64,000 bases of DNA from Escherichia coli (GTDB lineage Bacteria; Pseudomonadota; Gammaproteobacteria; Enterobacterales; Enterobacteriaceae): assembly GCF_051903065.1 (NCBI RefSeq), contig NZ_CP178438.1; one strand, written 5' to 3'. Below the pieces are notes generated by a model. It saw only the letters and a list, made by a program, of their open reading frames with translations. It was not told the DNA's origin and did no database searches. The position numbers and the translations under genes were made by a program. Positions 1 through 64,000 of this stretch are shown here, one piece after another (position 1 is the stretch's first letter; every line of letters begins with the position of its first letter).

Positions 1-995
1 TCGGCTTTCAGTTGTTGATACAGCGGTACGCAGGTGGCTGGCCCCATCAGGTAGTCGATTTCGGTCCACGGCATGCCGAGGTACAGCGATTCGAAAATCG
101 GCCTGGTGCGGTAAGAGACTTTATCGATGCGCACCACGGTCATGTTACGCCCGCCGGAGTAGTGTCCGGTAAACTCACCGAACGGCCCCTCGATTTCGCG
201 TTTACGGCTTTCGATGACCCCTTCGAGGATCACTTCTGAACCCCACGGCACATCAAAACCGGTCAGCGGGGCGGTGGCGATCGGGTACGAGCTTTCACGC
301 AGCGCGCCTGCCATTTCATACTCAGACTGATCGTATTTCAGCGGCGTGGCCCCCATCAGCGTGATGATCGGATCGTTACCGAGCGTGATGGCAATCGGCA
401 GATCTTCACCGCGCTCTTCTGCTTTATGCAGATGCAGGGCGATATCGTGCATCGGCACCGGTTGCAGGCCGAGCTTACGCTTGCCCTTCACTTCCATGCG
501 GTAGATGCCGACGTTCTGCTTGCCGAAGTTATCTGGGTCGAGCGGATCGCGGGAAACCACGCACGCTTTGTCGAGATAGAAACCGCCATCACCGTCGTTT
601 AAACGAAACAGCGGCAGGATATCGAACAGATTAATCTCGTCACCATCGACGGTGTTCTGCGCCCAGGCTGGATTGGCGCGGCGCTCCGGGGCGATCGGGA
701 AGTTATCCCAGCGGCGGATAAACTCATCAATCTGTTTTTTAACCGGGGTGTTTGGCGGCAGGCCCAAGGAAATCGCGTGGTTCTGCCAGGAACCGATGGT
801 ATTCATCGCCACGCGGGCATCGGTAAAACCGCGAATATTATCAAACCACAGCGCCGGTGCACCATCGCCGATACGCCCGGTGGCGTTGGCAGCGGCAGCC
901 AGATCCGGTTCCGCGTTCACCTCTTCGCTGATTTTCAGTAACTGGCCGTGGTCATCAAGCGCCTGTAAAAAGCTGCGTAAATCATCAAATGCCAT
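1..995 (-). CDS. UbiD-family decarboxylase (yclC/ecdC-like), N-terminal part only; gene runs off the window start
   Basis: Minus-strand frame opening at ATG (complement of 993-995) translating MAFDDLRSFLQAL..., a UbiD-like N-terminus. Start overlaps the stop of the upstream ubiX-like gene. Absent from ORF track because there is no stop inside the window. Confidence 0.6.
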   Translation of the reverse strand, partial: MAFDDLRSFLQALDDHGQLLKISEEVNAEPDLAAAANATGRIGDGAPALWFDNIRGFTDARVAMNTIGSWQNHAISLGLPPNTPVKKQIDEFIRRWDNFPIAPERRANPAWAQNTVDGDEINLFDILPLFRLNDGDGGFYLDKACVVSRDPLDPDNFGKQNVGIYRMEVKGKRKLGLQPVPMHDIALHLHKAEERGEDLPIAITLGNDPIITLMGATPLKYDQSEYEMAGALRESSYPIATAPLTGFDVPWGSEVILEGVIESRKREIEGPFGEFTGHYSGGRNMTVVRIDKVSYRTRPIFESLYLGMPWTEIDYLMGPATCVPLYQQLKA

Positions 996-1588
996 TATTC
1001 ATTCTCCTGAGAAAAATTCCGGGCCTGCGGCAATCCTTGCCAGCGCCTGGCGTGGGGATGTTCGAGGCCAAATTGATCCAGCACGCGGGCTACTACATGG
1101 TGGACAATGTCATCTACCGTTTCGGGATGGTTATAAAAGGCAGGCATCGGCGGCACCATCGCCACGCCCATGCGTGAAAGTGCGAGCATATTTTCGAGAT
1201 GGATGGTGCTAAGCGGCATTTCACGCGGCACCAGCACCAGTTTGCGGCCTTCTTTGAGCACGACGTCCGCCGCGCGCCCTACCAGGCCATCAGCGTAACC
1301 AGCGCGGATACCGGCGAGCGTTTTCATACTGCACGGAATAACGATCATGCCGTCGGTACGAAAGGAACCTGAGGAGATGGTCGCCGCCTGATCCGCCGGG
1401 TTATGGCTGAAGTCAGCGAGGGCAGCAACATCGCGGGCGCTGTAAGGCGTTTCCAGTTCAATGGTGGTTTTCGCCCACTTCGACATCACCAGATGAGTCT
1501 CGACATTCGGCATCTCCCGCAGCGCTTGCAGTAATGCCACACCAAGAGGCGCACCGGTAGCCCCTGTCATCCCGACGATCAGTTTCAT
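995..1588 (-). CDS. UbiX/Pad1-family flavin prenyltransferase (pad1/ecdB-like)
   Basis: 197-aa ORF MKLIVGMTGATGA... with the typical UbiX flavoprotein N-terminal motif; paired with the UbiD-like gene downstream. Confidence 0.85.
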   Translation of the reverse strand: MKLIVGMTGATGAPLGVALLQALREMPNVETHLVMSKWAKTTIELETPYSARDVAALADFSHNPADQAATISSGSFRTDGMIVIPCSMKTLAGIRAGYADGLVGRAADVVLKEGRKLVLVPREMPLSTIHLENMLALSRMGVAMVPPMPAFYNHPETVDDIVHHVVARVLDQFGLEHPHARRWQGLPQARNFSQENE

Positions 1589-1734
1589 TGCTTATTCTCT
1601 TAATTGTTCGTATACGAACGTTATTATTAAAATACGCCTCTGTTCTCATCGCGGCAAGCACTGAAAAGTAACAACATCCCCTTCGTCACTGAAAAACCGC
1701 TATGATAGCGGCAGAGAATTAGCCCGGAGTTTAC

Positions 1735-2142
1735 ATGGCGTTACGAAATAAAGCGTTCCATCAGTTACGACAGCTTTTTCAGCAGCACACATCTCGCTGG
1801 CAGCATGAGCTACCTGGCCTGACCAAACCGCAGTACGCGGTGATGCGCGCCATTGCTGATAAGCCTGGTATCGAACAGGTTGCGCTGATGGAAGCAGCAG
1901 TCAGCACCAAAGCAACGCTGGCAGAAATGCTGGCAAGAATGGAGAATCGTGGCTTAGTCAGACGTGATCATGATGCCGCTGACAAGCGGCGTCGCTTTGT
2001 CTGGCTGACTGCCGAAGGAGAAAAGATACTTGCTGCGGCGATACCGATTGGTGACAGCGTGGATGAGGAATTTTTGGGGCGTTTGAGTGCAGAAGAGCAG
2101 GAGCTGTTTGTGCAGCTGGTGCGCAAGATGATGAACACATAG
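1735..2142 (+). CDS. MarR/SlyA-family transcriptional regulator
   Basis: 135-aa ORF, winged-helix MarR-like sequence; divergent from the ubiX-like gene. Confidence 0.8.
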   Translation: MALRNKAFHQLRQLFQQHTSRWQHELPGLTKPQYAVMRAIADKPGIEQVALMEAAVSTKATLAEMLARMENRGLVRRDHDAADKRRRFVWLTAEGEKILAAAIPIGDSVDEEFLGRLSAEEQELFVQLVRKMMNT

Positions 2143-2215
2143 GATGCAAATTGCCGGGTAGGACGCTGACGTGTCTTATCCAGGCGACAAAAACACAAGC
2201 TTCCCAAACAAAAGA

Positions 2216-2248
2216 AAAAGGCCAGCCTCGCTTGAGACTGGCCTTTCT
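2216..2248. terminator. Hairpin between convergent MarR regulator and rpoS; probable bidirectional intrinsic terminator
   Basis: AAAAAGGCCAGCCTCGCTTGAGACTGGCCTTTCT: imperfect 9-10 bp stem flanked by an A-run and a T-rich tract. Confidence 0.5.
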
Positions 2249-2261
2249 GACAGATGCTTAC

Positions 2262-3254
2262 TTACTCGCGGAACAGCGCTTCGATATTCAGCCCCTGCGT
2301 TTGCAGGATTTCGCGCAAACGGCGCAGGCCTTCAACCTGAATCTGGCGAACACGTTCACGGGTGAGGCCAATTTCACGACCTACATCTTCCAGTGTTGCC
2401 GCTTCGTACCCCAGCAAACCGAATCGACGTGCCAGTACTTCACGCTGTTTGGCGTTCAGCTCGAACAGCCATTTGACGATGCTCTGCTTCATATCGTCAT
2501 CTTGCGTGGTATCTTCCGGACCGTTCTCTTTTTCATCGGCCAGGATGTCCAGCAACGCTTTTTCGGAATCACCACCCAGCGGGGTGTCTACCGAGGTAAT
2601 GCGCTCGTTAAGACGAAGCATACGGCTGACGTCATCAACTGGCTTATCCAGTTGCTCTGCGATCTCTTCCGCACTTGGTTCATGGTCCAGCTTATGGGAC
2701 AACTCACGTGCGGTTCGCAGGTAAACGTTCAGCTCCTTTACGATGTGAATCGGCAAACGAATAGTACGGGTTTGGTTCATAATCGCCCGTTCAATCGTCT
2801 GGCGAATCCACCAGGTTGCGTATGTTGAGAAGCGGAAACCACGTTCCGGGTCAAACTTCTCTACCGCGCGGATCAGCCCCAGGTTGCCCTCTTCGATAAG
2901 GTCCAGCAACGCCAGACCACGATTGCCATAACGGCGGGCAATTTTTACCACCAGACGCAAGTTACTCTCGATCATCCGGCGGCGAGAGGCGACATCTCCA
3001 CGCAGTGCGCGACGCGCAAAATAAACTTCTTCTTCGGCCGTTAACAGTGGTGAATAACCAATCTCACCAAGGTAAAGCTGAGTCGCGTCCAACACACGCT
3101 GTGTGGCTCCCTGCGATAACAGTTCCTCTTCGGCCAAATCGTTATCACTGGGTTCCTCTTCTACTAAGGCCTTTTCGTCAAAAACCTCAACTCCGTTCTC
3201 ATCAAATTCCGCATCTTCATTTAAATCATGAACTTTCAGCGTATTCTGACTCAT
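2262..3254 (-). CDS. rpoS: RNA polymerase sigma factor RpoS (sigma-38)
   Basis: Protein [21 protein letters not shown]... through ...[11 protein letters not shown] track extends 12 codons upstream; start placed at the internal ATG (3252-3254). Confidence 0.97.
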
Positions 3255-3316
3255 AAGGTGGCTCCTACCCGTGATCCCTTGACGGAACATTCAAGCAAAA
3301 GCCTGGTTCCGCCGAT

Positions 3317-13402: not shown

Positions 13403-13858
13403 CGGTTTATCCCCGCTGGCGCGGGGAACACGTGTGGCACTCTGCGTCTGGTATTAAATCATTCGGTTTATCCCCGCTGGCGCGGGGAACACCCGCCACG
13501 CCGTGCGCATCAACAGATATACGCAGGTTTATCCCCGCTGGCGCGGGGAACACAAACCGAAACACACGATCAATCCGAATATGAGCGGTTTATCCCCGCT
13601 GGCGCGGGGAACACCGAAAAGGCACCGTGCCGGTGACGTTCAATTCCGGTTTATCCCCGCTGGCGCGGGGAACACCGTTTTCACTCACTGGCAATCTCCG
13701 AGCAGAGCGGTTTATCCCCGCTGGCGCGGGGAACACGTGCGAATACCGTGTAAAAAATTAGTGTTATTCGGTTTATCCCCGCTGGCGCGGGGAACACTCA
13801 CGGTAGCGCCACTGCGCGTCGGTGACGGGCGGTTTATCCCCGCTGGCGCGGGGAACAC
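13403..13858 (-). CRISPR. CRISPR array 1 (type I-E): 8 repeats, 7 spacers of 32 nt
   Basis: 29-bp repeat CGGTTTATCCCCGCTGGCGCGGGGAACAC at 13403, 13464, 13525, 13586, 13647, 13708, 13769, 13830 (61-bp period). Third repeat starts with A. AT-rich leader on the high-coordinate side, so transcription is on the minus strand. Confidence 0.97.
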
Positions 13859-13954
13859 ACTAAGCATACATATCTGTTTTTAAACAAATTTATTCCACAT
13901 CAACAATCTACCAACTAAATTCAAACATTTCCTTATTTTTAAAGAACACATAAC
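13859..13954 (-). promoter_or_regulatory. CRISPR array 1 leader (AT-rich; promoter and integration signals)
   Basis: AT-rich tract between the last repeat and cas2; contains CAATCTACCAAC, also found at similar distance in the leader of array 2. Confidence 0.7.
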
Positions 13955-15164
<1,210 letters not shown>

Positions 15165-15168
<4 letters not shown>

Positions 15169-15815
15169 ACCTCTGCTCCGGGTTTGATCAGCATCAGACC
15201 ACAGCCGAACGCGCGGCTTTTGCCATACCCCTGACTGAGACGTTGCAGAAATAACCCGGGATCGGTGACCGTAAGCATCCCCGTATAATCCACGCTACTG
15301 AACTGGATCAGTTGCCGGGAGTTTTCCCGCCGCAGTTGCTGTTGTCGGTAGGCATCAACCGAGGTATCCAGCAGTGTAAAACCGCTTCTCTCCCCCTGCG
15401 CTGCCAGCCAGTCCAGCGCCGCCTGTTGTTGATGCAACCAGACATCACGCCCTTCCGCCTGTCCCCTCACCTGCCGTTTCGCCTCCATCAGCAGATCGTG
15501 GCGCTTGCCCGCTTTACAAATTGTGGGATTCGCCCGCAGGTTGAAACAAAGGGATTGTCCGGTACGCAGCTCCGGAGCAAATGACCGGCATTCGATAGTG
15601 AAAGTTTCACTTTCCGCCGGGCGTTCCTGCGAGAGGACAAAAAAGCGAAACGCACCCTGAAGTTCCTCCCGACGATAAAGAAATTGCCTTTCTTTGCCGC
15701 CAGGGAAGAGATCCCACAGCCACTGATGCATCACATATTCACCGCGATCCACCAGATGCAGCAACTGCGCAGGCAAAAGCTGAGCGGTATGTAAGGTTAT
15801 TCTTGAGAGGTACAT
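15165..15815 (-). CDS. cas6e: Cas6e (CasE/Cse3) crRNA endoribonuclease
   Basis: Position between cas5 and cas1; C-terminal G-rich loop SRAFGCGLM typical of Cas6e. Start placed at internal ATG (MYLSRITLH...); track ORF extends 46 codons upstream into cas5. Confidence 0.8.
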
Positions 15816-16543
15816 GGTTCCTCCTTGCTGAGCCACGGCCCCTGATTGACGGTGCGTTCCCCAAACAGCCACTGCTGGCGATTTAAAGGAACATCCCGGC
15901 GGCGTAATATTTTGCTCACGACCAGGCCGTCGTGCTCCCCTTCCCACCAGCATTCATCCTGAAGTTTCGGGAGTGAGACTTTCAGGTCGTGGAAATGATC
16001 CTGATACTGTTGGTATGCGTTACGTAAAACATCAGACGCGTTGCCTTCGAGCAGTAACGGCGCAAGTGGTAATGCCAGCGGATGACTTTTTCGCCCCAGA
16101 TAAAGAGGAAAAACTGGATGGCGTAAACCGCCCTGCAACTGTTCGAGGCTGTAAGGCGCATCGGCTGTTGTTGCCACCGCCACCATCCACCAGGCGTCGG
16201 TGTAGTAGTCGCGCCGGGAGATAATCGCGCTCAGAAGATCAGAGTCGCTCAACTCTTCGCGACGGCTGAAATAACGCGCTTTGCGCACCTCTTTTGGCAT
16301 CTGGATCGTGTGATAATCCCGTGCCCAGCGCGGGTTACGGCTGGCGCAAACCACCAGTGAATAGTGGCGATTAAACGCGTTTAAGCGTTCGGTATCATCA
16401 CGCCGAATCCCTACCCCGGCAGCCAGCAGACCCAGCAATGCTGAGCGCGAAGGCAGTTCATGGGTATGACGCACTTCGCCGGGGGCATCGACGCCCCAGG
16501 ATGCCATTGGCCCATGAAGCTGAAAAATCAGATATTGGCTCAT
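15797..16543 (-). CDS. cas5: Cas5e (CasD) Cascade subunit
   Basis: 248-aa ORF MSQYLIFQLHGPMASWG..., Cas5 N-terminal pattern; operon position. Confidence 0.85.
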   Translation of the reverse strand: MSQYLIFQLHGPMASWGVDAPGEVRHTHELPSRSALLGLLAAGVGIRRDDTERLNAFNRHYSLVVCASRNPRWARDYHTIQMPKEVRKARYFSRREELSDSDLLSAIISRRDYYTDAWWMVAVATTADAPYSLEQLQGGLRHPVFPLYLGRKSHPLALPLAPLLLEGNASDVLRNAYQQYQDHFHDLKVSLPKLQDECWWEGEHDGLVVSKILRRRDVPLNRQQWLFGERTVNQGPWLSKEEPCTSQE

Positions 16544-16553
16544 AAGCCGCCCC

Positions 16554-17609
16554 TTACGCGCAGATAAAGTCCAGTACGTCCTTCATGCTTCCCTGTTTGT
16601 TCATCACGTCAAAACTTGCGCATTCAGTCTTCTGTTCGTAGACCGTATTCATGTTTTCGCGAAGCGTTGTAATACGCTGCACCGCCACATCTAACTGACG
16701 GGTACCATTAATGGGTTCATAGAAAGCCGCCGCCAGAGAACGCGGTTGATCAGTGCCTTTTTCCGCCAGCGCCCAGGAGGCGTAGGCACGGCTGGCAAAG
16801 CTATTTTGTTTACCGGTTGGGGAAACTTTAAGCGCGGCTTCCGTAAAAGCGCGTATGGTCTGATTAGCTAACGCTTCGTCACCGCCGAGGTTTTCTACCA
16901 GCAGATCTTTATCAATGCAGATATAGGTGTAGAAAAGTGCTGAACCGAATCCGGTTTCTCCGAGATGCCCGGCACCGGCATCTTCAGAGGCCTGGCGCAA
17001 ATCATCAACGGCGGTGAAAAAATCATCTTCGACAATCGTTTCACTGACACCAAACGCATGCGCGACCTGGCAGGCGGCTTCAACATTAAACTCAGGTTTA
17101 TTCGCCAGCATACGACCAAACATAGCGATATCTACCGCTATACGGTCTTTACGTAACAACGCGAGATCTTCCTCTTTTGGCGCGCGCTTTTCTTCTGCCA
17201 GTTGATGGGCCAGCGCTTTTACGGCGTCAAATTCTGCCGGGCTGATATGAACTAATTGTTCAGTTTCGGCGTTAGTGAGCGGATCTTTTGGTTTTTTGTC
17301 GTTTTTAGCTTTCCCAAGATAATCTGCAATTTTTGCCGCCCATTCGATGGCTTTTTTCTCTTCGATTCCTTTCTCAATCAGGATAGTTGCCGCCTCACGC
17401 GCAATTCGCCCACTGCGAATACCAATATGGCCCGCCAGTGCCTGTTCAAAAAGTGCAGAAGTGCGCCACGCACGTTTCAGACTTTGTGAGGAAACGCGCA
17501 GACGCGTTGCACCACCCAGTACCACAGTTTTTGGCGCACCAGTATCATCACGGTTAAGGTTGGCAGCAGGGTAAGCGGTTAACAAATGAAGCTGAATAAA
17601 TGTTGTCAT
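16554..17609 (-). CDS. cas7: Cas7e (CasC) Cascade backbone subunit
   Basis: 351-aa ORF MTTFIQLHLLTAYPAANLNRDDTGAPK..., Cas7e N-terminal signature. Confidence 0.92.
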   Translation of the reverse strand: MTTFIQLHLLTAYPAANLNRDDTGAPKTVVLGGATRLRVSSQSLKRAWRTSALFEQALAGHIGIRSGRIAREAATILIEKGIEEKKAIEWAAKIADYLGKAKNDKKPKDPLTNAETEQLVHISPAEFDAVKALAHQLAEEKRAPKEEDLALLRKDRIAVDIAMFGRMLANKPEFNVEAACQVAHAFGVSETIVEDDFFTAVDDLRQASEDAGAGHLGETGFGSALFYTYICIDKDLLVENLGGDEALANQTIRAFTEAALKVSPTGKQNSFASRAYASWALAEKGTDQPRSLAAAFYEPINGTRQLDVAVQRITTLRENMNTVYEQKTECASFDVMNKQGSMKDVLDFICA

Positions 17610-17620
17610 GAGATAGTCCT

Positions 17621-18160
17621 TTATTGATTTTGTTCGTTATCGGCGTCGCCAGCCTGGTAATATTCCAGCGCCCAGCGGATACGGATAAATTCGGTTGGCC
17701 GCTGCTGGCGGCGGTGATGATTGAGCAGGTCGTCGCTCTCCTGACACCAGCGGAAAATATCGTCTGCCAAAGAGATAAGATTGACGGAACCGTTTAATAA
17801 TTTGACTGCGCGTCGTAACTGGCGCAGTAATTCATCCGGCGTTTTTACTGCCGACAGGCAAGTAAAACGCCCCTCTGACATTACCGCCGCCAGCTGTGCG
17901 GCAAAAGGCTGCCGTTCATCAATGGCTTTAACATTGGCGGCAACGGCGGCGACCAGTGCCAGTGCGGTAAAACGCCACTCTTGTGCTTCAATTTTCCACA
18001 AAGTGTGGGTCTGCATCAGCAGAGAACGAAACCCTTCTGACAAGCAAACATCATTAACCGTTGTGCTACGCCGCAGACTGGCACGATTGCCGCGTTTAGC
18101 CTGCAACTCTTCGTGCCATTTACGCAGCGTGGCTTTGTGCCCGTCTTTTACAATACTCAT
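17621..18160 (-). CDS. cse2: Cse2 (CasB/Cas11e) Cascade small subunit
   Basis: 179-aa ORF between cse1 and cas7. Confidence 0.85.
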   Translation of the reverse strand: MSIVKDGHKATLRKWHEELQAKRGNRASLRRSTTVNDVCLSEGFRSLLMQTHTLWKIEAQEWRFTALALVAAVAANVKAIDERQPFAAQLAAVMSEGRFTCLSAVKTPDELLRQLRRAVKLLNGSVNLISLADDIFRWCQESDDLLNHHRRQQRPTEFIRIRWALEYYQAGDADNEQNQ

Positions 18161-19725
18161 TCAGCAGCCTCCTGCTTTTTCTCCCTGGCGGCTTTAGCAC
18201 TTTGCTTCTCCGCCGATGTTGTAAAATATTTTTTGCGCGCGGTCATGACGCGTTTTAAATCAACGGGCTCATAAGGATTGGTGAATACACGCTCGTCAAA
18301 ATCCTGACGCGAGAATAACCAAATCTCCTTATTCCATTTGCTGAGTAATTCATCCGCATCCTGACCTTCTTCAATTTGGCGCACTAACCTCAGGAAGCGA
18401 TGCTGAGTTTTGTTCCAGAAGTCGATATCCACAAAACTGAAATCACCCCGTGCACCTTTTGGATCGGAGAACCATGCTTCTTTCAATGCACTCCGTAACA
18501 GACTTAGAATGCGTGAAGCCGTTTGCGCAGCCAGCCGCAGTTTCGGTATCTGGCCTTCTTTTTTATTGAGCAGCAGCGGGAAACGGTGTTCGTACCAACA
18601 GCGGGCTTTCATGTTGTCGAAATCATAGCCAAATCCCCATAGGCCTACTTTTGCCTGCTTGAGACTGCTGGCATTAAAGAGTTTCACCACCAGAGCGGGA
18701 AGTTCCGTATTGTTTTCTGACTTACCCGTTTCGATAAGGCCTAACCAGTCGCGCCAAATTAAACCGCCTGGTTGTGGTTTAACTGAGTAAAACTCGCCAC
18801 CCTCTTTAAGTGGTACACGGTAAGGCGTTAATGGATGCTGCCACATGGCATAATTCGCACCGTAATTTTTGGTCGTCATCAGGCTCAGAAGCGCGTCGTC
18901 CTGCTCACCGCAAATATCGCAGTTGCCGACTGTCGTGGTATTAAAATCAATACGAATACGCCGCGGCATTCCCCAGTACGCCTGGAGTTTATTGACCTGA
19001 TCATCGGTTACCACCGCACCGGCCAGTTCGCTGGTACGCGTCGGGCCAAGCCAGGGGAAAACCAGATCGTCAAATTTTTTGGGTAGCGGTAAGTCGGCTT
19101 CATCCTGCGGCATCACGTTGAGCCACAGTTTGCGCCACAAGGGGGCTTGTTGATTGCCCTGATACTCCTGCAATTCAATCAGAGTCGTCATCGGCCCACC
19201 GCCGCGTAAACCGGTTCGGTAGCCTTTGCCGCCTGACGGTGCATTTAACTGTAGGGAGAACAGAGCTAACGCGGAACAATGAGGGCATACGTGTTCAGTC
19301 ACGCCACGCTTAATAAAGTGGTCTTTATTAAACTTCGTTGTTTGAGCGCCGGGAATCTCAGGCAGTAATGAAGCAACCTGAACTTTATCTCCCGTGAGCG
19401 CCTCGAAATCCTGCATAAATGAAGGGGAATCTGGCCCAAACTGGAAAGCATGTTCTAAAGACAGCAATGCTTCCCGTAGCTTTTCGGCTTCCAGTCCGTC
19501 TTGCCAGATATCATCCCAACGACCATGATTTTTGGGCGCGAAACTGGTTTGTAGTAGCCCCAGTAAAAACTGCCATGCTGCTCCCTGGAGATCTGCTCGT
19601 GGCGCAGCGATATCGACAACATTTTCATCAGCCAGATCGACTGGCGCCAGTTTGCCTGTCGTTCCGTCTTTAAAACGAACGGGCAACCACGGGGTTGTCA
19701 GAAGTGAAAACGAGTTCATACGCAT
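18157..19725 (-). CDS. cse1: Cse1 (CasA/Cas8e) Cascade large subunit
   Basis: 522-aa ORF at head of the Cascade operon; alternative start 2 codons in (MNSFSLL). Confidence 0.88.
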   Translation of the reverse strand: MRMNSFSLLTTPWLPVRFKDGTTGKLAPVDLADENVVDIAAPRADLQGAAWQFLLGLLQTSFAPKNHGRWDDIWQDGLEAEKLREALLSLEHAFQFGPDSPSFMQDFEALTGDKVQVASLLPEIPGAQTTKFNKDHFIKRGVTEHVCPHCSALALFSLQLNAPSGGKGYRTGLRGGGPMTTLIELQEYQGNQQAPLWRKLWLNVMPQDEADLPLPKKFDDLVFPWLGPTRTSELAGAVVTDDQVNKLQAYWGMPRRIRIDFNTTTVGNCDICGEQDDALLSLMTTKNYGANYAMWQHPLTPYRVPLKEGGEFYSVKPQPGGLIWRDWLGLIETGKSENNTELPALVVKLFNASSLKQAKVGLWGFGYDFDNMKARCWYEHRFPLLLNKKEGQIPKLRLAAQTASRILSLLRSALKEAWFSDPKGARGDFSFVDIDFWNKTQHRFLRLVRQIEEGQDADELLSKWNKEIWLFSRQDFDERVFTNPYEPVDLKRVMTARKKYFTTSAEKQSAKAAREKKQEAAE

Positions 19726-20115
19726 CCTCTCGTAGAAAAGACCATCCCTGGTCGGTTGTCCATCACCATATTTTCAGATTTAGTTGGAGACTTAATCTGA
19801 GTCGGATAAAAGAAAAGACGTTGAATGTGATACGAAAATCGAACTTAGTTTGTCGTTTTGAAAGCAGACTTAGCACAAGTTGAAGCAAAAAAATCGACAA
19901 CATCGTAGTCCTCTTCACCGCAGCTTTTCACCGGTCACGAAAATACGCCTTGTAACGGTGTGACTCAACTCCGGATCCGGACATTATTTAAAATCTTTGT
20001 TTCTCATTAACTCATAGCAATTACCCATCTATCATAATCACAATAGCATTGATAAAATAAATCCATTCCCTGATTCTAGGGATTAACCAAGTTAGTGAGA
20101 TACAAAAATTGGTTC

Positions 20116-20144
20116 CTGTTCCCCGCGTCAGCGGGGATAAGCCC
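20116..20144 (+). repeat. Solitary degenerate CRISPR-repeat-like element in the cas3-cse1 intergenic region
   Basis: cTGTTCCCCGCGtCAGCGGGGATAAgCCc is 24/29 identical to the crRNA-sense repeat GAGTTCCCCGCGCCAGCGGGGATAAACCG. Stem CCCCGC/GCGGGG is intact. crRNA sense is on the plus strand, opposite to the cas genes and to both arrays. Confidence 0.75.
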
Positions 20145-20166
20145 TGGCGTCATCCGACGCCAGGGC
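20141..20166 (-). terminator. Strong hairpin 4 nt downstream of cas3 stop (possible cas3 terminator)
   Basis: GCCCTGGCGTC-atcc-GACGCCAGGGC, 11-bp stem; on the cas3 sense strand it is followed by the repeat-derived hairpin and a TTTTTG run. Confidence 0.5.
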
Positions 20167-20169
20167 ATC

Positions 20170-22869
20170 TCAATCAACCTTGCCAATCAATCCTTCCGTA
20201 GCCGAATACCCGCAGCTTTCGTCATCGGTGACTAAAATCACGTTTGCCATCTCCGGATCTTGCCGTTGTTCAATGCACCACTGCCTGAACGCTTCCCCTT
20301 CCAGTAAAGAAAATTCATCCCGATGTTTTTTCCACCAGCTTCGACGCACTCTGGCAACGCTCATTTCCCATGCGTGAGCACCGCTGGCATAAGGCTTCAC
20401 CACACCGTCAATACAGGTAGCCAGCCACAGGGAAACAGACTCTTCAGCCAGACGTGTCGACAGCTTTTCCGGGAGGTAATCGTTGATATTGGCGGCATAG
20501 CCGGGCCTGAAGTTCAGCATAAACTTTTTAGCCATTGCGCGATCGCAGTAATATTTGCCCACTTGCTCCTGCTCGCTGCGGGCAAATCCTTCCGGCATTA
20601 CCACGTCCTCACCGTAGACGGATTCAATAAGAAGCCGGGCTGCGTGTGGCATCTGAATAGCGCCTTGCTCACGCAATACTCGCTGCGTCAGCCAGATTCG
20701 CCCATGATCGGGGTAGACATATGCGCTGTTACGCATCGCACTACCAAACCATTCGTCACCCGGAGAGTCGTCCCAGACGGGGGCCAGAATCAGCAATTCA
20801 GGAGGGGAACGCTCGTCTTTTCCATCACGTTTTAACTGACCATTAATATCACGAATATGCCGTTGTAATCGCCCCGCTCGCTGGATCAGCAAATCAATGG
20901 GGGCCAGGTCGGAGATCATTTCGTCCAGGTCAATATCCACACTTTGCTCAATTACTTGTGTACAAACAATGACTTGAGATGATCTTTTTAAACTACAATT
21001 TTTACCAAAGCGTGCCAGCGTTTCCGTTTCAATTCGCTGGCGATCGCTAAAAGCAAAGCGGCTATGAAAAAGTGAAAGGCTGGAAGCAGGAATGACGCCG
21101 CGGGCAAGTAACTGACGATAAACCTTAATAGCGTCATCGACAGAATTCCGGATCCAGGCGATGCATTTCCCCTGACTTACCGCTGATTCGATACGCGCAA
21201 TACATTCTTGTTCGCTATGAAGCCAACCCACGCTCACGCTACGCTCAACGTCTTTGCGCGTCGCTACCCGGTGCGAATGCACATCGGATTTCGTGACATG
21301 CGTCAGCCAGGGGTAATCATCCTTTTCTAGGAACGGAGCTTCTTGCTGGCCCTCTGTGCCACGCGCAAAGGCGGCGACAAGTTTGTCGCGCTGCTGTTGA
21401 GATAACGTAGCAGAAAGCAAAATGACGCTGTTTCCGCCACGCACCTGTCGCTCAATCAACCCTTCAAGAATGTACGACATGTAAGCGTCACAGGCGTGGA
21501 TCTCATCAGCCAGCAGGATTTTGTTACTCAACCCCAGAAGCCGCAGATTATTATGTTTAAACGGCATCACTGCCATCATCGCCTGATCCAGCGTGCCGAC
21601 GCCAATTTCAGCCAGTAAAGCCTTCTTGTTACTGTCGGCAAACCAGGCTGCACATCCTTGACTGAACGCTTGTTCATCCGGTTCTTCTGACCCGACTAAA
21701 TCACCGGACCAGAGTGATTCATTAAAGCGTTCCATTAATGTACGGGCGCTGTGTGCCAGCACCAGGCTGGGGCGGGATTCTGGCGAAAAGAAAGCAAGCC
21801 AGGTTTTGACCAGCCGATCGTACATGGCATTGGCCGTTGCCATTGTTGGCAGGCCAAAAAACAAACCCTGAGCTTTATTCTCAGCCATCAACCTGTGCGC
21901 CAGGATAAGCGCCGCTTCTGTTTTACCTGCGCCAGTCACATCTTCCAGAATAAATAACTGTGGCCCTGGCTGGCTGATATCCAGATCCAGTACCTTTTGC
22001 TGTAATGGTGTCGGGTGCTCAATAAAAGGAAACAGCGTATTAATTCCGGTGAAAGGTGCGGTTTCTGCTTTTGGAGGAAAGACGGTTAAGGCGTTTTGAG
22101 CCTGAACTAAAGTTTTCTGCCAGTAATCTTTAATATTCATTGTCTGTGCGACGCGTGGAAAAAATCGCGTTGACGAACCCGTCCAGTCTGCGAGTACGAC
22201 TGTTGCAGAGATATACCAGGAAAGTTGTTTTAAAAGTTCAACGCCCTCGTCATCATCCCAGAATGTGGGAATCTCTATGAGCGGAAACAGTGACTTGATT
22301 TCAAGGAGAAAATCTCGTGCGGCAGCTTTGTCTTCAGGCAGGAAATTATCCAGTTCATCAATACGGTCAGGGGGCCGACCATGATGCCCGGTAGTCATGG
22401 GCATCCACATCGCTATTACACGTTTAAGTTTGCGAGTAGAGAGTGAAGAGGCAGGAAGCAATTCTTCGCATTCACTTAAATAATGATGCCACAACCAGTA
22501 GCCCAGCGTTGAATGAGAGATCTTTTCGTAATTCTTTCTTGCGCCTTCCGGAACCTTGAGTTGTGGGTGCAGGTAAAGTTGCTGAAATGAGCGGGCAAAT
22601 TTTCCAATATCGTGCCAGCACAACAACCAGGCGAAAAATTGAGCCGCCTGTTCCTTGTCAGAAATCCCTAATTGACGAAAATAATCAGCCAGCCCGAAGC
22701 AATTTCTTTTAACCATTAAATAGCCCATCGCGGCCACATCCAGCGAATGCCAGCAAAGAAGGTGATAGTCGTCACCCCCTTCTTTCTCGTCGCGTCGGGT
22801 TTTTCCCCAGAAATCAAAGAAAGTCACAATATTTTTATCCTTCAGTAAACTTAAAGGATATTTACGCAT
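20170..22869 (-). CDS. cas3: Cas3 HD-nuclease/helicase
   Basis: 899-aa ORF with N-terminal HD-like region and SF2 helicase motifs (DVTGAGKTEA, DEIH). Confidence 0.93.
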   Translation of the reverse strand: MRKYPLSLLKDKNIVTFFDFWGKTRRDEKEGGDDYHLLCWHSLDVAAMGYLMVKRNCFGLADYFRQLGISDKEQAAQFFAWLLCWHDIGKFARSFQQLYLHPQLKVPEGARKNYEKISHSTLGYWLWHHYLSECEELLPASSLSTRKLKRVIAMWMPMTTGHHGRPPDRIDELDNFLPEDKAAARDFLLEIKSLFPLIEIPTFWDDDEGVELLKQLSWYISATVVLADWTGSSTRFFPRVAQTMNIKDYWQKTLVQAQNALTVFPPKAETAPFTGINTLFPFIEHPTPLQQKVLDLDISQPGPQLFILEDVTGAGKTEAALILAHRLMAENKAQGLFFGLPTMATANAMYDRLVKTWLAFFSPESRPSLVLAHSARTLMERFNESLWSGDLVGSEEPDEQAFSQGCAAWFADSNKKALLAEIGVGTLDQAMMAVMPFKHNNLRLLGLSNKILLADEIHACDAYMSYILEGLIERQVRGGNSVILLSATLSQQQRDKLVAAFARGTEGQQEAPFLEKDDYPWLTHVTKSDVHSHRVATRKDVERSVSVGWLHSEQECIARIESAVSQGKCIAWIRNSVDDAIKVYRQLLARGVIPASSLSLFHSRFAFSDRQRIETETLARFGKNCSLKRSSQVIVCTQVIEQSVDIDLDEMISDLAPIDLLIQRAGRLQRHIRDINGQLKRDGKDERSPPELLILAPVWDDSPGDEWFGSAMRNSAYVYPDHGRIWLTQRVLREQGAIQMPHAARLLIESVYGEDVVMPEGFARSEQEQVGKYYCDRAMAKKFMLNFRPGYAANINDYLPEKLSTRLAEESVSLWLATCIDGVVKPYASGAHAWEMSVARVRRSWWKKHRDEFSLLEGEAFRQWCIEQRQDPEMANVILVTDDESCGYSATEGLIGKVD

Positions 22870-23061: not shown

Positions 23062-23214
23062 CTACTTCTTCGATTCGTAAGCGAGAACAGCCTTAAACTC
23101 CATACCACGTTCTCTGATACTCAACTCACACAACGAGTCACCTACCATCAGCGTGAATCCCAGTACTGTACAACACAGTACGATGATTGCCACAAGGGCA
23201 TATTTTGTCAGCAT
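23062..23214 (-). CDS. Hok/Gef-family type I toxin (HokE-like small membrane peptide)
   Basis: 50-codon ORF not in the track (below size cutoff): [50 protein letters not shown]. Hok signature (TM helix, SLCE, AYE) and a GGGAGG Shine-Dalgarno 7 nt upstream. Location matches the known hokX/sokX locus between cysH and cas3. Confidence 0.75.
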
Positions 23215-23478
23215 GTCTTGCCTCCCTGCAAAGAAGAGACTAACATTCGAATTGCTTAGGTTCGAACGCTGGCCTCAGGTTGATAGAAATATCGCCTGGG
23301 GCTTTTGTCCATCTGGAACCTCGCGAATGCTTAACGCCAGACAGCCTCAAGCACCCAACACCATTCTATACCTGTTAATTCTTCCAGCGGCGTTCACGTT
23401 TAAAATCAGGAATGCTGCTCGCAAAATAAAAACGCCCCCATCATTTCTGACAGAGGCGTTTAATTTATCCGGCAATAT

Positions 23479-39319: not shown

Positions 39320-39458
39320 TGGTTATCCCCGCTGGCGCGGGGAACATAAGTTCGACAACTTAAAAAATGATAACAAGTCCGGTTTATCCCCGCTGATGCA
39401 GGGAACATAATAAAAACTTTAACTAGTTCGGTTTATCCCTGTTTTTACAAGGAATATT
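39320..39458 (-). CRISPR. Decayed CRISPR remnant: three degenerate type I-E repeats with irregular spacing
   Basis: tGGTT-ATCCCCGCTGGCGCGGGGAACAT (39320-39347), CGGTTTATCCCCGCTGATGCAGGGAACAT (39380-39408), CGGTTTATCCCTGTTTTTACAAGGAATAT (39430-39458); intervening segments 32 and 21 nt. Confidence 0.8.
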
Positions 39459-39519
39459 AACTACACTCGATGTCTTTAGAATAAAAGACAATACGAATCG
39501 CACTTTATCAATTTTCACT

Positions 39520-40576
39520 GGCTTTGTTGAATAAATCGAACTTTTGCTGAGTTGAAGGATCAGATCACGTATCTTCCCGACAACGCAGACCGTTCCGTGG
39601 CAAAGCAAAAGTTCAAAATCACCAACTGGCCCACCTACAATAAAGCCCTCATCAACCGTGGCTCCATAACTTTCTGGCTGGATGATGAAGCTATTCAGGC
39701 CTGGTATGAGTCAGCAACACCTTCTTCACGAGGCAGACCTCAGCGCTATTCTGACCTTGCCATCACGACTGTGCTGGTCATTAAACGCGTATTCAGGCTG
39801 ACCCTGCGCGCTGCGCAGGGCTTTATTGATTCCATTTTTTCTCTGATGAACGTTCCGCTACGCTGCCCGGATTACAGCTGTGTCAGCAGGCGGGCAAAGT
39901 CGGTTAATGTCAGTTTCAAAACGCCCACCCGGGGTGAAATCGCACACCTGGTAATTGATTCCACCGGGCTGAAGGTCTTCGGTGAAGGCGAGTGGAAAGT
40001 CAAAAAGCATGGCCAGGAACGCCGCCGTATCTGGCGTAAGCTGCATCTCGCCGTTGACAGTAAAACACATGAAATCATCTGCGCTGACCTGTCGCTGAAC
40101 AACGTTACGGACTCAGAGGCCTTCCCCGGGTTAATCCGGCAAACCCACCGGAAAATCAGGTCAGCCGCCGCCGATGGCGCTTACGATACCCGGCTATGTC
40201 ACGATGAACTGCGGCGTAAGAAAATCAGCGCGCTTATCCCTCCCCGAAAAGGTGCGGGTTACTGGCCCGGTGAATATGCAGACCGTAACCGTGCAGTGGC
40301 TAATCAGCGAATGACCGGGAGTAATGCGCGGTGGAAATGGACAACAGATTACAACCGTCGCTCGATAGCGGAAACGGCGATGTACCGGGTAAAACAGCTG
40401 TTCGGGGGTTCACTGACACTGCGTGACTACGATGGTCAGGTTGCAGAGGCTATGGCCCTGGTACGAGCGCTGAACAAAATGACGAAAGCAGGTATGCCTG
40501 AAAGCGTGCGTATTGCCTGAAAACACAACCCGCTACGGGGGAGACTTACCCGAAATCTGATTTATTCAACAAAGCC
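39520..40576 (+). mobile_element. IS903-family (IS5 superfamily) insertion sequence, 1057 bp, intact, with 9-bp target site duplication
   Basis: 18-bp terminal inverted repeats GGCTTTGTTGAATAAATC at 39520-39537 and (reverse complement) 40559-40576. Direct repeat ATTTTCACT at 39511-39519 and 40577-40585. One transposase ORF spans the element. Confidence 0.93.
39597..40520 (+). CDS. IS903-family DDE transposase
   Basis: Open frame from 39552 (TTG) in the track; likely start GTG 39597, giving ~307 aa. Start assignment is uncertain. Confidence 0.85.
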   Translation: MAKQKFKITNWPTYNKALINRGSITFWLDDEAIQAWYESATPSSRGRPQRYSDLAITTVLVIKRVFRLTLRAAQGFIDSIFSLMNVPLRCPDYSCVSRRAKSVNVSFKTPTRGEIAHLVIDSTGLKVFGEGEWKVKKHGQERRRIWRKLHLAVDSKTHEIICADLSLNNVTDSEAFPGLIRQTHRKIRSAAADGAYDTRLCHDELRRKKISALIPPRKGAGYWPGEYADRNRAVANQRMTGSNARWKWTTDYNRRSIAETAMYRVKQLFGGSLTLRDYDGQVAEAMALVRALNKMTKAGMPESVRIA

Positions 40577-40976
40577 ATTTTCACTTAAAGTATGAACAGG
40601 ATATCTTTATTCATAAGAACTATTCATCAACAGCGTATAGAGGCGGTTATGTAAAACCACTCATTAGCCTCAAAACAAAGACAAATTTCCAGATTTATTA
40701 CTTAATCAATGAATAACAAGCTTAAAAAATACACTGTTATTCTAAAGAAAAAATTAACAGGCATTAATTAATATTAAAAAAATAATATATTAAAATTTCT
40801 TAACGGTTTAAGGATTATACAAATAACACTTTGATTAAATTTGATTTTTTGTATCGATAATTGTGAACTTATCTGGCATGGGGAACTATTTTGAACATGA
40901 GGTGTTACGTGGATATGTTGCTTATTACAAGTACAGCTAATATAAAAACTTGAGAAAGAGATAACGGGTTATATGG

Positions 40977-41554
40977 TGGTTTATCCCCGCTGGCGCGGGG
41001 AACTCGTACTGACGGATAAAAATAATACCTTTTGCGGCGGTTTATCCCCGCTGGCGCGGGGAACTCGTCAACGTTTTTCATGTGGGCATGAGTTGGGGCG
41101 GTTTATCCCCGCTGGCGCGGGGAACTCTATTCGGCCTCGTGCTGGTCGTGACAAAATACCGGTTTATCCCCGCTAGCGCGGGGAACTCTGGCGATATTGC
41201 CTACCGCAACAAAGAAAATACGGTTTATCCCCGCTAGCGCGGGGAACTCATCCACGAATCCAGTGCAAATGAGTTTGTTGGCGGTTTATCCCCGCTAGCG
41301 CGGGGAACTCATTGTGACTACCACCGATAACCCCGCAACCACCGGTTTATCCCCGCTAGCGCGGGGAACTCCTGCATTCGCCTGCGGTTATCAGATCGCT
41401 AAACGGTTTATCCCCGCTAGCGCGGGGAACTCGCTGCCATTACTTCCCGCCAGCGTTGCTCTGGCGGTTTATCCCCGCTAGCGCGGGGAACTCGCAGAGA
41501 ATCGTTCGATTGCCCCTACATCTTCCGGTTTATCCCCGCTGGCGCGGGGAACTC
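40977..41554 (-). CRISPR. CRISPR array 2 (type I-E): 10 repeats, 9 spacers of 32 nt
   Basis: 29-bp repeat CGGTTTATCCCCGCTGGCGCGGGGAACTC at 40977, 41038, 41099, 41160, 41221, 41282, 41343, 41404, 41465, 41526. Repeats 4-9 have CTAGCGC instead of CTGGCGC; repeat 1 starts with T. Leader on the high-coordinate side. Confidence 0.97.
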
Positions 41555-63839: not shown

Positions 63840-63882
63840 AAAGCAACCTCAATAAGAAAAACTGCCGCGAAGGATAGCAGGA

Positions 63883-64000
63883 ATAAAAAAAGGGAGCACT
63901 GTATTCACAGTGCTCCCGGTTCGTTTCGCAGCATTCCAGCTACATTTGTTGCTCCCTGCTCATCCTTGACAACTTTTCCTCTGGCCTTGCGGCCAATCGT
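63883..64000 (-). ncRNA. csrB: 3' portion of the CsrA-sequestering sRNA CsrB (continues beyond window end)
   Basis: Minus strand reads ...CAAGGATGAGCAGGGAGCAACAAATGTAGCTGGAATGCTGCGAAACGAACC followed by terminator GGGAGCACTGTGAATACAGTGCTCCC + T-run; GGA-containing motifs and the expected position next to yqcC. Confidence 0.8.

Follow-up and report, generated by a model that had tools for sequence, protein, structure and literature searches.

Assignment of the rpoS-adjacent segment of an Escherichia coli genome to the hosA-vdcBCD hydroxyarylic acid decarboxylase cassette, a very probable match

The mutS-rpoS interval of E. coli O157:H7 and EPEC contains the genes pad1 (ecdB), yclC (ecdC), yclD (ecdD) and hosA (labelled 'slyA'), an arrangement referred to as "pattern I" and spread across several phylogroups (Ewers et al. 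2014, PMC4209514). This pattern was first described by LeClerc 1999 and Herbelin 2000, as cited in later papers; the mosaic region is a textbook case, in use for E. coli typing since 1999-2000. The decarboxylase genes, named here vdcBCD, are also found as ecdBCD, kpdBCD or pad1-yclC-yclD. Decarboxylation activity was published for the VdcCD enzymes of Sedimentibacter and Bacillus: VdcC requires VdcD and prFMN, its substrates are vanillate and 4-hydroxybenzoate (4-HBA), and two CXXC zinc motifs were described in VdcD (PMC8379154). According to the HosA literature (Roy and Ranjan 2016, through later papers that cite it), HosA represses the hydroxyarylic acid decarboxylase operon and its own gene from a site located downstream of the transcription start, 4-HBA lifts this repression, and induction of the operon by 4-HBA is reported for E. 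coli UMN026. Binding of 4-HBA by UMN026 HosA was measured by EMSA and ITC (KD 4.74 uM), and Asp110 was named as the ligand residue. Structures are solved and functions published for the decarboxylase, the cofactor synthase and the regulator.

We analyzed a 64,000-nucleotide stretch of E. coli DNA (the window), of which positions 1-2142 contain a truncated vdcC (-), vdcB (-) and hosA (+), with rpoS (-) adjoining (Table 1). These genes very probably constitute hosA-vdcBCD, the system by which Enterobacteriaceae decarboxylate hydroxyarylic acids non-oxidatively and reversibly, and they lie where this system normally does, between rpoS and mutS. The matches to the corresponding families, with strong scores on long open reading frames, are far beyond chance. 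The cassette beside rpoS is nevertheless ordinary, since about 44% of the complete E. coli genomes carry it and the operon is well studied with all its components already characterised; the main value of the locus is a correct annotation, with little significance beyond.

Table 1. Features of the hosA-vdcBCD locus and of the adjoining rpoS gene
Feature	Position	Strand	Description
vdcC, 5' two-thirds (= ecdC, kpdC, yclC)	1..995	-	UbiD-family prFMN-dependent 4-hydroxybenzoate/vanillate decarboxylase catalytic subunit
TAATG junction	993..997	-	vdcB stop TAA 997..995 and vdcC ATG 995..993, one base in common
vdcB (= ecdB, kpdB, pad1)	995..1588	-	UbiX-family flavin prenyltransferase, 197-aa ORF; first gene of the operon
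HosA operator	1606..1619		GTTCGTATACGAAC, perfectly palindromic over 14 bp, located 17 nt before the vdcB start codon
Predicted sigma-70 promoter of vdcBCD	1629..1657	-	-35 TTGCCG 1657..1652, 17-nt spacer, -10 TATTTT 1634..1629
Second palindrome	1697..1711		CCGCTAT-G-ATAGCGG, 7+7 inverted repeat
hosA (formerly mis-annotated 'slyA' or kpdR)	1735..2142	+	135 aa, MarR-family repressor of the operon
REP-like imperfect hairpin	2151..2187		past the hosA stop and before the rpoS terminator; cassette-specific sequence
rpoS intrinsic terminator	2215..2248	-	terminator scan
rpoS	2262..3254	-	intact, 330 aa, tail-to-tail (convergent) with hosA

The polymorphic segment between mutS and rpoS

The right-hand side of the segment is bounded by rpoS, whose product scores 604.6 bits on the NCBIfam RpoS equivalog (cutoff 394) and is annotated as WP_000081550.1 in a locus identical across the region. 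The gene is separated from the hosA stop by 119 bp. The rpoS terminator forms the edge of the polymorphic segment, because in megablast the similarity to cassette-less genomes begins at position 2209 or 2216. A K-12-type genome has in common with positions 1-2261 only the last 46 bases (2216-2261, i.e. the rpoS terminator); the K-12 junction reads TTTTATT / GTGCACAG / AAAAGGCCAGCC, and ygbI-ygbN stand there in place of the cassette. The hairpin between hosA and the terminator, which may resemble REP elements, lies in a strongly folding stretch (-43.2 kcal/mol for 2143-2261, z = -4.6). No known RNA element is involved, since the search of the whole window with Rfam at gathering thresholds returned nothing within 1-3300.

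On the left side vdcC is cut by the edge of the window, and its last 144 codons and the whole of vdcD were read from near-identical genomes only. Three genomes match the first 25 kb of the window (1-25000) at 100.0%; for one of them, 23CRST027, the base-by-base comparison over these 25 kb gave a single mismatch, and across the window the differences are SNPs and an IS5-family insertion near 39.5 kb. In the two matching genomes that were inspected vdcC (475 aa), vdcD, pphB and mutS are all intact, and the flank of the matching genomes reads mutS-pphB-vdcD-vdcC with none of the K-12 ygb genes. Judged from these genomes, the strain would carry the short O157:H7-type "pattern I", mutS-pphB-vdcDCB-hosA-rpoS, its own left flank being presumably the same as theirs. 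The two outcomes that the earlier note had named as contrary to its reading, a K-12-type arrangement to the left or an interruption of the UbiD-like frame, were thus not encountered in the matching genomes.

The cassette is present in 2379 of the 5426 complete E. coli genomes (~44%) and absent from 56%. Among the 5426 genomes, the junction with pphB, as in this strain type, occurs in 804 and that with ygbN, which next to vdcD would mean pattern IV, in 1602. Carriers of the cassette have many origins, such as meat, river water and faeces (commensal isolates). The claim of a polymorphic content that departs from K-12 is thus borne out. The further claim, that this content helps to place the lineage, holds in part: the strain is neither of the K-12/A-type (pattern II) nor of the B2-type (pattern III) rpoS-flank arrangement, but the cassette is a coarse marker only, pattern I occurring in several phylogroups.

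The same segment had been described as variable island content; the comparison between genera shows that it is not an island acquired by this lineage. The rpoS-hosA-BCD arrangement is found in 46 of the 80 sampled species loci (Citrobacter, Klebsiella, Enterobacter, Kluyvera, Kosakonia and others), and hosA, the operator and BCD stay together as one unit in 74 species loci that reach as far as Vibrio and Shewanella, VdcC retaining 88-99% amino-acid identity over this range. A horizontally acquired genomic island was considered and rejected: a search of the 16-kb locus for tRNA genes gave none, hence no tRNA-linked integration site, no integrase stands among the annotated genes of the locus, the GC content of the cassette is 55.6%, that of mutS 56% and that of the whole window 51%, and related genera possess the same cassette. 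The idea that the E. coli cassette came from a mobile plasmid was likewise discarded, the "plasmid" matches of VdcC being records of 4.8-4.9 Mb, i.e. chromosomes filed as plasmids. The E. coli cassette is on chromosomes only; genuinely plasmid-borne copies of VdcC occur in Pantoea, Rahnella and Chimaeribacter, where the plasmids are megaplasmids. Because the cassette lies beside rpoS in many genera of Enterobacteriaceae, it is an ancestral occupant of the site, lost in the K-12 and B2 lineages. That K-12 represents the deleted state of the site is the one point that the comparative data add. Within E. coli the synonymous divergence is 0.16-0.22 for vdcC and 0.03-0.12 for rpoS.

The HosA regulator and its operator

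The product of hosA matches the Pfam MarR model with 44 bits (cutoff 24.6; E-value 2e-11) and is identical at 129 of 135 positions (95.6%), over its full length, to PDB 8AGA, "Transcriptional regulator HosA". Asp110 is kept; the substitutions are S20A, G28D, M52I, D78E, I98V and V126M (residue of the window first, that of 8AGA second). A designation as SlyA was rejected, the score on the NF002926 SlyA equivalog being 29.2 bits for a cutoff of 120 and SlyA structures matching HosA at only about 1e-7. The earlier note had proposed a MarR/SlyA-family regulator: MarR stands, SlyA does not, and the gene commonly labelled 'slyA' at this locus is hosA. It also had the gene divergent from the decarboxylase genes, as is the case (hosA on the + strand, the operon on the - strand) across an intergenic region of 146 bp.

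This region contains GTTCGTATACGAAC, a perfect 7+7 inverted repeat, which is found with the same flanks in the HosA binding-site oligonucleotides of table S1 of PMC6261655. We searched for the operator across species as GTTCG-N4-CGAAC, allowing at most one mismatch in the core. It is kept in 74 of the 74 species loci tested, preceding the first gene of the operon by 14-73 nt and mostly by 15-25 nt. The best candidate for a further HosA site between hosA and vdcB in E. coli, TTTCAGTGACGAAG, has three core mismatches and was rejected. With the same operator and the ligand residue, HosA of this strain would respond to 4-hydroxybenzoate by analogy with its characterised homologues.

The predicted promoter of vdcBCD matches 8 of the 12 consensus positions, and in the cross-genus alignment cTTGcc and GTAtttt/GTAgttt are conserved columns. 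A consensus sigma-70 scan of positions 900-2400 yielded no promoter that reached the threshold. With the predicted promoter, transcription would begin immediately before the operator, which agrees with the published location of the HosA site. At the second palindrome a ctatcatagcgg block is conserved across genera, and a -10-like TATGAT (1701-1706) is contained in this palindrome, 29 nt ahead of the hosA start codon; the palindrome probably belongs to the hosA promoter.

The best placed of the alternatives, though a very unlikely one, is that HosA is mainly a regulator of virulence and motility, horizontally acquired by pathogenic E. coli, the decarboxylase genes being incidental neighbours. 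An EPEC hosA mutant is reported in the literature to have lower flagellin and motility, a preprint argues that hosA was horizontally acquired from Shigella, and the old 'slyA' annotation tied the gene to virulence (Ewers et al. 2014, PMC4209514). But the unit that travels as one block through the 74 species loci includes the operator placed before the operon, its position beside rpoS in 46 of 80 loci argues for vertical inheritance, and the cassette is carried by 44% of the complete E. coli genomes, whose many origins are given above. Moreover the ligand of HosA is the operon's own substrate. A repressor of the decarboxylase operon remains the preferred reading of hosA.

The decarboxylase genes and their product

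VdcB matches the Pfam Flavoprotein model (1.9e-44) and the NCBIfam models VdcB (312.2 bits, cutoff 290) and UbiX-family (257.4, cutoff 188). It is identical at 196 of 197 positions to PDB 1SBZ, Pad1 of O157:H7, an entry deposited under the title "Probable aromatic acid decarboxylase". From these matches VdcB would make the prFMN cofactor of VdcC. At the junction of the two genes the operon strand reads ...GAA TAA TGG (longer stretch: TCAGGAGAATGAATAATGGCATTTG), and an AGGAG Shine-Dalgarno sequence lies within the 3' end of vdcB, ahead of the vdcC start. The overlap of one base between stop and start probably couples the translation of vdcB and vdcC.

The vdcC frame runs from its ATG (995..993) to the left edge of the window, 331 codons with no stop, i.e. 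codons 1-331 of 475. This fragment matches the Pfam models UbiD (1.5e-54) and UbiD_N (2.5e-14). On the NCBIfam VdcC model, of which it covers positions 2-327 of 467, it obtains 536.9 bits, below the cutoff of 650 only because the gene is cut by the edge of the window. We took the full-length gene from the locus of 23CRST027, whose 4001-base overlap with the window shows no difference; the 475-aa product of this gene reaches 787.8 bits. A full-length alignment with ShVdcC (PDB 7AE4) was obtained at 7.9e-160, and the motifs NVGIYR (161), MHDIA (182), EYEMAG (225) and EGPFGEF (269) are conserved with this enzyme. The catalytic Glu-Arg-Glu of UbiD and the prFMN- and metal-binding motifs are present in the part of VdcC encoded by the window. 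The role of each residue in these motifs follows from established knowledge on Fdc1 and UbiD. Between E. coli alleles the pN/pS of vdcC is 0.015-0.021, which indicates strong purifying selection on this gene.

The earlier note had anticipated both a ubiX-like gene overlapping a UbiD-family decarboxylase gene, as the VdcB and VdcC scores and the shared base of TAATG establish, and a remaining subunit gene to the left. The latter is vdcD, which follows vdcC in the three matching genomes: an ORF of 78 aa that starts 10 nt past vdcC, scores 121.2 bits on the VdcD model (cutoff 30) and carries CPRC and CQHC. Its proposal of an aromatic acid decarboxylase system regulated by the MarR protein agrees with experimental results published for near-identical genes, the published operator being unchanged in the window.

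The pair could also be read as a spare UbiX/UbiD of the ubiquinone pathway, decarboxylating 3-polyprenyl-4-hydroxybenzoate and not free phenolic acids. VdcB and VdcC are members of the UbiX and UbiD superfamilies, 4-HBA serves both as inducer and as precursor of the ubiquinone ring, and a substitution of VdcB for UbiX is plausible since its product would be the same cofactor. This reading is highly improbable: full-length VdcC obtains 174.6 bits with the 4-hydroxy-3-polyprenylbenzoate decarboxylase equivalog (NF008175, cutoff 788) against 787.8 with the VdcC model, its companion VdcD occurs specifically with the phenolic acid enzymes, and the 56% of E. coli genomes that lack the cassette all make ubiquinone. 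It is extraordinarily improbable that the physiological direction is carboxylation, with CO2 fixed onto phenol or catechols in the anaerobic gut, for although the enzyme family is described as reversible in the literature, HosA senses the acid (4-HBA) and not phenol, no kinase/phosphatase partner of the phenylphosphate carboxylase type is present, and the phenyl_P alpha and beta models are far below their cutoffs.

For a decarboxylase of free phenolic acids, the following sequence of events can be proposed. VdcB would prenylate reduced FMN to prFMN; VdcC, tightly bound to its small zinc-ribbon subunit VdcD, would use this cofactor to convert 4-hydroxybenzoate to phenol and vanillate to guaiacol, two conversions of which the strain is probably capable as judged from its genes. 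HosA, as a MarR-type dimer, would bind GTTCGTATACGAAC and block transcription from the operon promoter. The binding of 4-hydroxybenzoate would release HosA from the operator, and the enzyme would thus be made only when the substrate accumulates. Parabens, plant phenolics and lignin breakdown products are sources of 4-hydroxybenzoate and vanillate.

Comparison with known systems

Among the systems compared are VdcCD of Sedimentibacter hydroxybenzoicus and BsdBCD/YclBCD of Bacillus subtilis (PDB 7AE4, 7AE5, 7AE7). They have the same B-C-D logic, with a UbiD-type C subunit and a zinc-ribbon D subunit, but the sequence identity is moderate, and the divergent MarR repressor with its operator is a feature of the enterobacterial operon.

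KpdBCD of Klebsiella and EcdBCD of Enterobacter cloacae are orthologues that also lie beside rpoS, with 96-97% identity for VdcC and 87-90% for VdcB. Both have been used with AroY in muconate engineering. In contrast to E. coli, Klebsiella, Enterobacter and Kluyvera have a second, distal operator-like site adjoining the -35, and some of their loci have ~2.6 kb extra between rpoS and hosA. We tentatively consider a scenario, possible but rather unlikely, in which hosA-vdcBCD ancestrally occupied the rpoS-mutS interval, E. coli, Citrobacter and Salmonella came down to one operator by loss of the distal site, and the E. coli alleles of the cassette are older than those of rpoS or were imported by recombination. 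If this were true, the number of operators would set genus-specific induction thresholds or the autoregulation of hosA.

The HosA proteins of UPEC UMN026 and EPEC E2348/69 (PDB 8AGA and six further entries) have the same length of 135 aa and an identical 14-bp operator, and six positions differ between the crystallised EPEC HosA and that of this strain.

The O157:H7 locus has the same gene order, orientation, junctions and flank (mutS-pphB-D-C-B-hosA-rpoS) and 97.9% DNA identity with positions 1-2261 of the window. The protein identities are 474/475 for VdcC, 196/197 for VdcB, 78/78 for VdcD and 130/135 for HosA. A TOBE-domain gene between fhlA and ygbA, present in this strain type and absent from the O157:H7 locus, places the strain outside the O157:H7 lineage itself. 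For the cassette, the difference from O157:H7 is at the level of alleles only.

Genes and products of the cassette

ORF, Pfam and NCBIfam analyses confirmed in every detail the three genes described by the earlier note: a MarR regulator, a UbiX-like protein and a UbiD-family decarboxylase with a stop/start overlap. At this overlap (GAA-TAA-TGG on the operon strand) the vdcB stop and the vdcC ATG have one base in common, and AGGAG lies a few bases upstream. The vdcB-hosA intergenic region is 146 bp long, and 119 bp separate the hosA end from the rpoS stop codon.

Features of the window (nucleotide positions)
Feature	Position	Strand or orientation	Description
vdcC, 5' part	ATG 995..993 to window edge	minus	open frame, 331 codons, without stop
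vdcB	995..1588	minus	197-aa ORF directly upstream of vdcC
HosA operator	1606-1619		perfect 14-bp palindrome GTTCGTATACGAAC, 17 nt upstream of vdcB ATG
Putative weak sigma-70 promoter	1657..1629	minus	TTGCCG, 17 nt, TATTTT; upstream of palindrome
hosA	1735..2142	opposite to vdcBC	MarR-family, 135 aa
REP-like hairpin	2151-2187		between hosA stop and rpoS terminator
rpoS	2262..3254	convergent with hosA	intact, 330 aa; RpoS equivalog 604.6 bits (cutoff 394)
Type I-E CRISPR-Cas	13404-13856, about 13955-22869, 39320-41552		
CRISPR array 1	13404-13856		8 repeats
cas2 to cas3	about 13955-22869		mapped from 23CRST027 annotation
Hok/Gef-family gene	about 23062-23214		with sok; mapped from 23CRST027 annotation
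sok antisense RNA	23199-23356		Rfam RF01794, 111.7 bits; between cas3 and cysH
Isolated CRISPR repeat	39320-39345		single
IS5-family transposase ORF	39552-40520		357.4 bits (cutoff 140); between isolated repeat and array 2
CRISPR array 2	40978-41552		10 repeats
CsrB sRNA, 3' part	63882-64000		Rfam RF00018, 135.7 bits; cut by right window edge

The encoded part of VdcC matches Pfam UbiD (1.5e-54) and UbiD_N, and scores 536.9 bits with the NCBIfam model "non-oxidative hydroxyarylic acid decarboxylases subunit C" (VdcC; profile positions 2-327 of 467). The vdcB product passes both the VdcB model (312.2 bits, cutoff 290) and the UbiX-family model (257.4, cutoff 188); it is identical at 196 of 197 residues to PDB 1SBZ, which we take to be the structure of Pad1 from E. 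coli O157:H7. In a full-length alignment the MarR protein shares 129 of 135 residues with "Transcriptional regulator HosA" (PDB 8AGA, plus six other entries). Its identity as SlyA was rejected (SlyA model 29.2 bits, cutoff 120); the old "slyA" label is thus a misnomer.

Three complete E. coli genomes (23CRST027, 23CRST031 and ECNB21-M121) match the first 25 kb at 100.0%. No base differs in the 4001-base overlap of the window with the 23CRST027 locus, and the base-by-base comparison with this genome gives one mismatch within these 25 kb, with a second SNP and an IS5-family insertion farther right. As none of the three equals the window exactly, we infer the strain's own left flank from these very close relatives. 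The two inspected have the order mutS, pphB, vdcD (78 aa), vdcC (475 aa), vdcB, hosA, rpoS. In these relatives the extension to the left that the earlier note had proposed finds the remaining subunit gene, an intact UbiD-like frame and pphB adjoining vdcD, i.e. no K-12-type arrangement. In a matching genome full-length VdcC scores 787.8 bits (cutoff 650) and VdcD 121.2 (cutoff 30); CPRC and CQHC in VdcD are the two CXXC zinc-ribbon motifs published for this subunit (PMC8379154).

Distribution and origin of the cassette

Positions 1-2261 are whole in 2379 of 5426 complete E. coli genomes; the remaining genomes have only the last ~50 bases, the rpoS terminator, in common. The mutS-rpoS arrangements were named patterns I-IV by Ewers et al. 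2014 (PMC4209514) and traced there to LeClerc 1999, Herbelin 2000, and Culham and Wood 2000. Pattern I, that of this strain type and O157:H7, is pphB-vdcDCB-hosA-rpoS (804 genomes with a pphB-vdcD junction), and pattern IV (EPEC type) is pphB-ygbI..ygbN-vdcDCB-hosA-rpoS (1602 genomes with a ygbN-vdcD junction). Pattern II (K-12) reads pphB-ygbI..ygbN-rpoS; in pattern III (B2), genes for a metallo-hydrolase and a flavodoxin separate ygbN from rpoS. Compared with pattern IV, the junction in K-12 shows a clean deletion: ygbN terminator, 8 bases, rpoS terminator. The region is therefore polymorphic and unlike K-12, as the earlier note had stated. Its suggestion that the content helps to place the lineage holds in part: the cassette is a coarse marker that rules out patterns II and III, yet the pattern I genomes are spread across several phylogroups (Ewers et al. 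2014, PMC4209514).

Degraded arrangements with IS91 were also found. In one E. coli genome (NZ_CP074859.1; 11674-13816 of the extracted locus) ygbN, vdcD and a remnant of vdcC stand beside rpoS together with an IS91-family transposase, and another copy of this IS91 interrupts iap and cas3. The REP-like hairpin is absent from K-12; a sequence resembling it, TTGCCGAATGTGACGCTGACGCGTCTATCCGG, follows the flavodoxin gene at the corresponding position of a B2-type locus (L003, about 13880-13915).

One genome per species was scanned with full-length VdcC and the neighbour genes were then located by tblastn, giving 80 loci. In 46 of them the layout is precisely that of the window, nlpD-rpoS and then divergent hosA with B-C-D, in genera including Citrobacter, Klebsiella, Enterobacter, Kluyvera, Leclercia, Kosakonia, Atlantibacter, Franconibacter, Pseudocitrobacter and Mangrovibacter; in five (Salmonella enterica subsp. 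arizonae and diarizonae, Phytobacter) the cassette is inverted beside rpoS. mutS lies less than 6 kb away in 47 species loci, often straight after vdcD, pphB occurs in five, and tblastn placed ygbN in none of the 80. A tRNA scan of the 16-kb locus found no tRNA, its annotated genes include no integrase, and the GC content (55.6%, vs 56% for mutS) reveals no compositional anomaly. The cassette is confined to chromosomes in E. coli; where it is plasmid-borne, the carriers are megaplasmids of Pantoea, Rahnella and Chimaeribacter. Taken together, the synteny across species, the lack of tRNA, integrase or GC anomaly and the chromosomal location argue that the cassette is the ancestral occupant of the interval and that the K-12 and B2 states are losses. 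The acquisition of hosA from Shigella, put forward in a recent preprint, is not supported by this evidence.

VdcC keeps 88-99% amino-acid identity between E. coli and species as distant as Vibrio salinus and Shewanella mangrovi, and it was at least as conserved as MutS where one locus contained both genes. Within E. coli vdcC is more divergent at synonymous sites (0.06-0.22) than adjacent rpoS (0.009-0.12), in line with the mosaic, recombinant history known for the region.

Other loci of the window and of the closest genome

The alignment with 23CRST027 breaks at about 39520, which suggests that this genome is without the IS5-family insertion; in the window the insertion probably splits a CRISPR leader or array. 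Downstream of queE, 23CRST027 carries a LemA gene followed by three TPM-domain genes, one annotated as a truncated pseudogene (L009 38750-42321; NZ_AP045789.1 3327749-3331320, window coordinates being shifted there by the IS5 insertion). This suggests a local duplication or rearrangement.

Regulation and function of the decarboxylase

Published work on near-identical genes shows that HosA represses its own gene as well as the non-oxidative hydroxyarylic acid decarboxylase operon, and that binding of 4-hydroxybenzoate frees HosA from a palindrome located downstream of the transcription start (EMSA; ITC KD 4.74 uM). The palindrome and its flanks are the same as the published HosA binding-site oligonucleotides (PMC6261655). 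With this site unchanged in the window, the earlier note's reading of an aromatic acid decarboxylase under MarR control is borne out. With no more than one mismatch in the core, GTTCG-N4-CGAAC is conserved ahead of the first operon gene in all 74 species loci examined, those of Vibrio and Shewanella included; the distance to that gene is 14-73 nt, in most cases 15-25 nt. The putative vdcB promoter falls below threshold in a consensus sigma-70 scan; its blocks are conserved across genera.

Comparison of intergenic regions with window 1589-1734 showed a second operator-like site, e.g. GATCGTGTACGAAC, in half of the species loci (37 of 74). This site stands ~57-70 bp farther upstream than the proximal operator, and in Klebsiella, Enterobacter, Kluyvera and Leclercia it adjoins the predicted -35. 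E. coli, whose intergenic region is ~25 bp shorter, has the proximal operator alone, as do Citrobacter and Salmonella.

The VdcC-VdcD complex decarboxylates vanillate and 4-hydroxybenzoate, and VdcC has no activity unless VdcD and prFMN are present (PMC8379154), the prenylated flavin coming from B proteins. In 11 of 80 species loci (L044, L058, L059, L067, L071, L072, L078, L079, L084, L086 and L088) vdcB is missing and hosA is directly upstream of vdcC; these must use another UbiX for prFMN. The low pN/pS of vdcC among E. coli alleles (0.015-0.021) indicates that the gene is kept by selection where retained. Carboxylation as the physiological direction is unlikely, because the ligand sensed by HosA is the acid. 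A backup role of VdcBC in ubiquinone synthesis is likewise unlikely, since VdcC reaches only 174.6 bits with the UbiD equivalog (cutoff 788) and the cassette is missing in 56% of E. coli genomes. A mainly virulence or motility role of HosA is at odds with how tightly environmental and plant-associated genera conserve the hosA-operator-BCD unit. The earlier note's observation is correct, and its interpretation as a MarR-regulated decarboxylase is supported.

The E. coli decarboxylase aligns end to end (7.9e-160) with the crystallised Sedimentibacter vanillate/4-hydroxybenzoate decarboxylase VdcC (PDB 7AE4), and NVGIYR, MHDIA, EYEMAG and EGPFGEF, all within the window-encoded part, are common to both. 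The polymorphism of the region (1999-2014), the Pad1 structure, the function and structures of HosA and the VdcCD mechanism were already known in detail. What is modestly new comes from the comparative scan alone: one versus two operators, the eleven loci without the B gene, and the unusually high conservation of VdcC (88-99% amino-acid identity).
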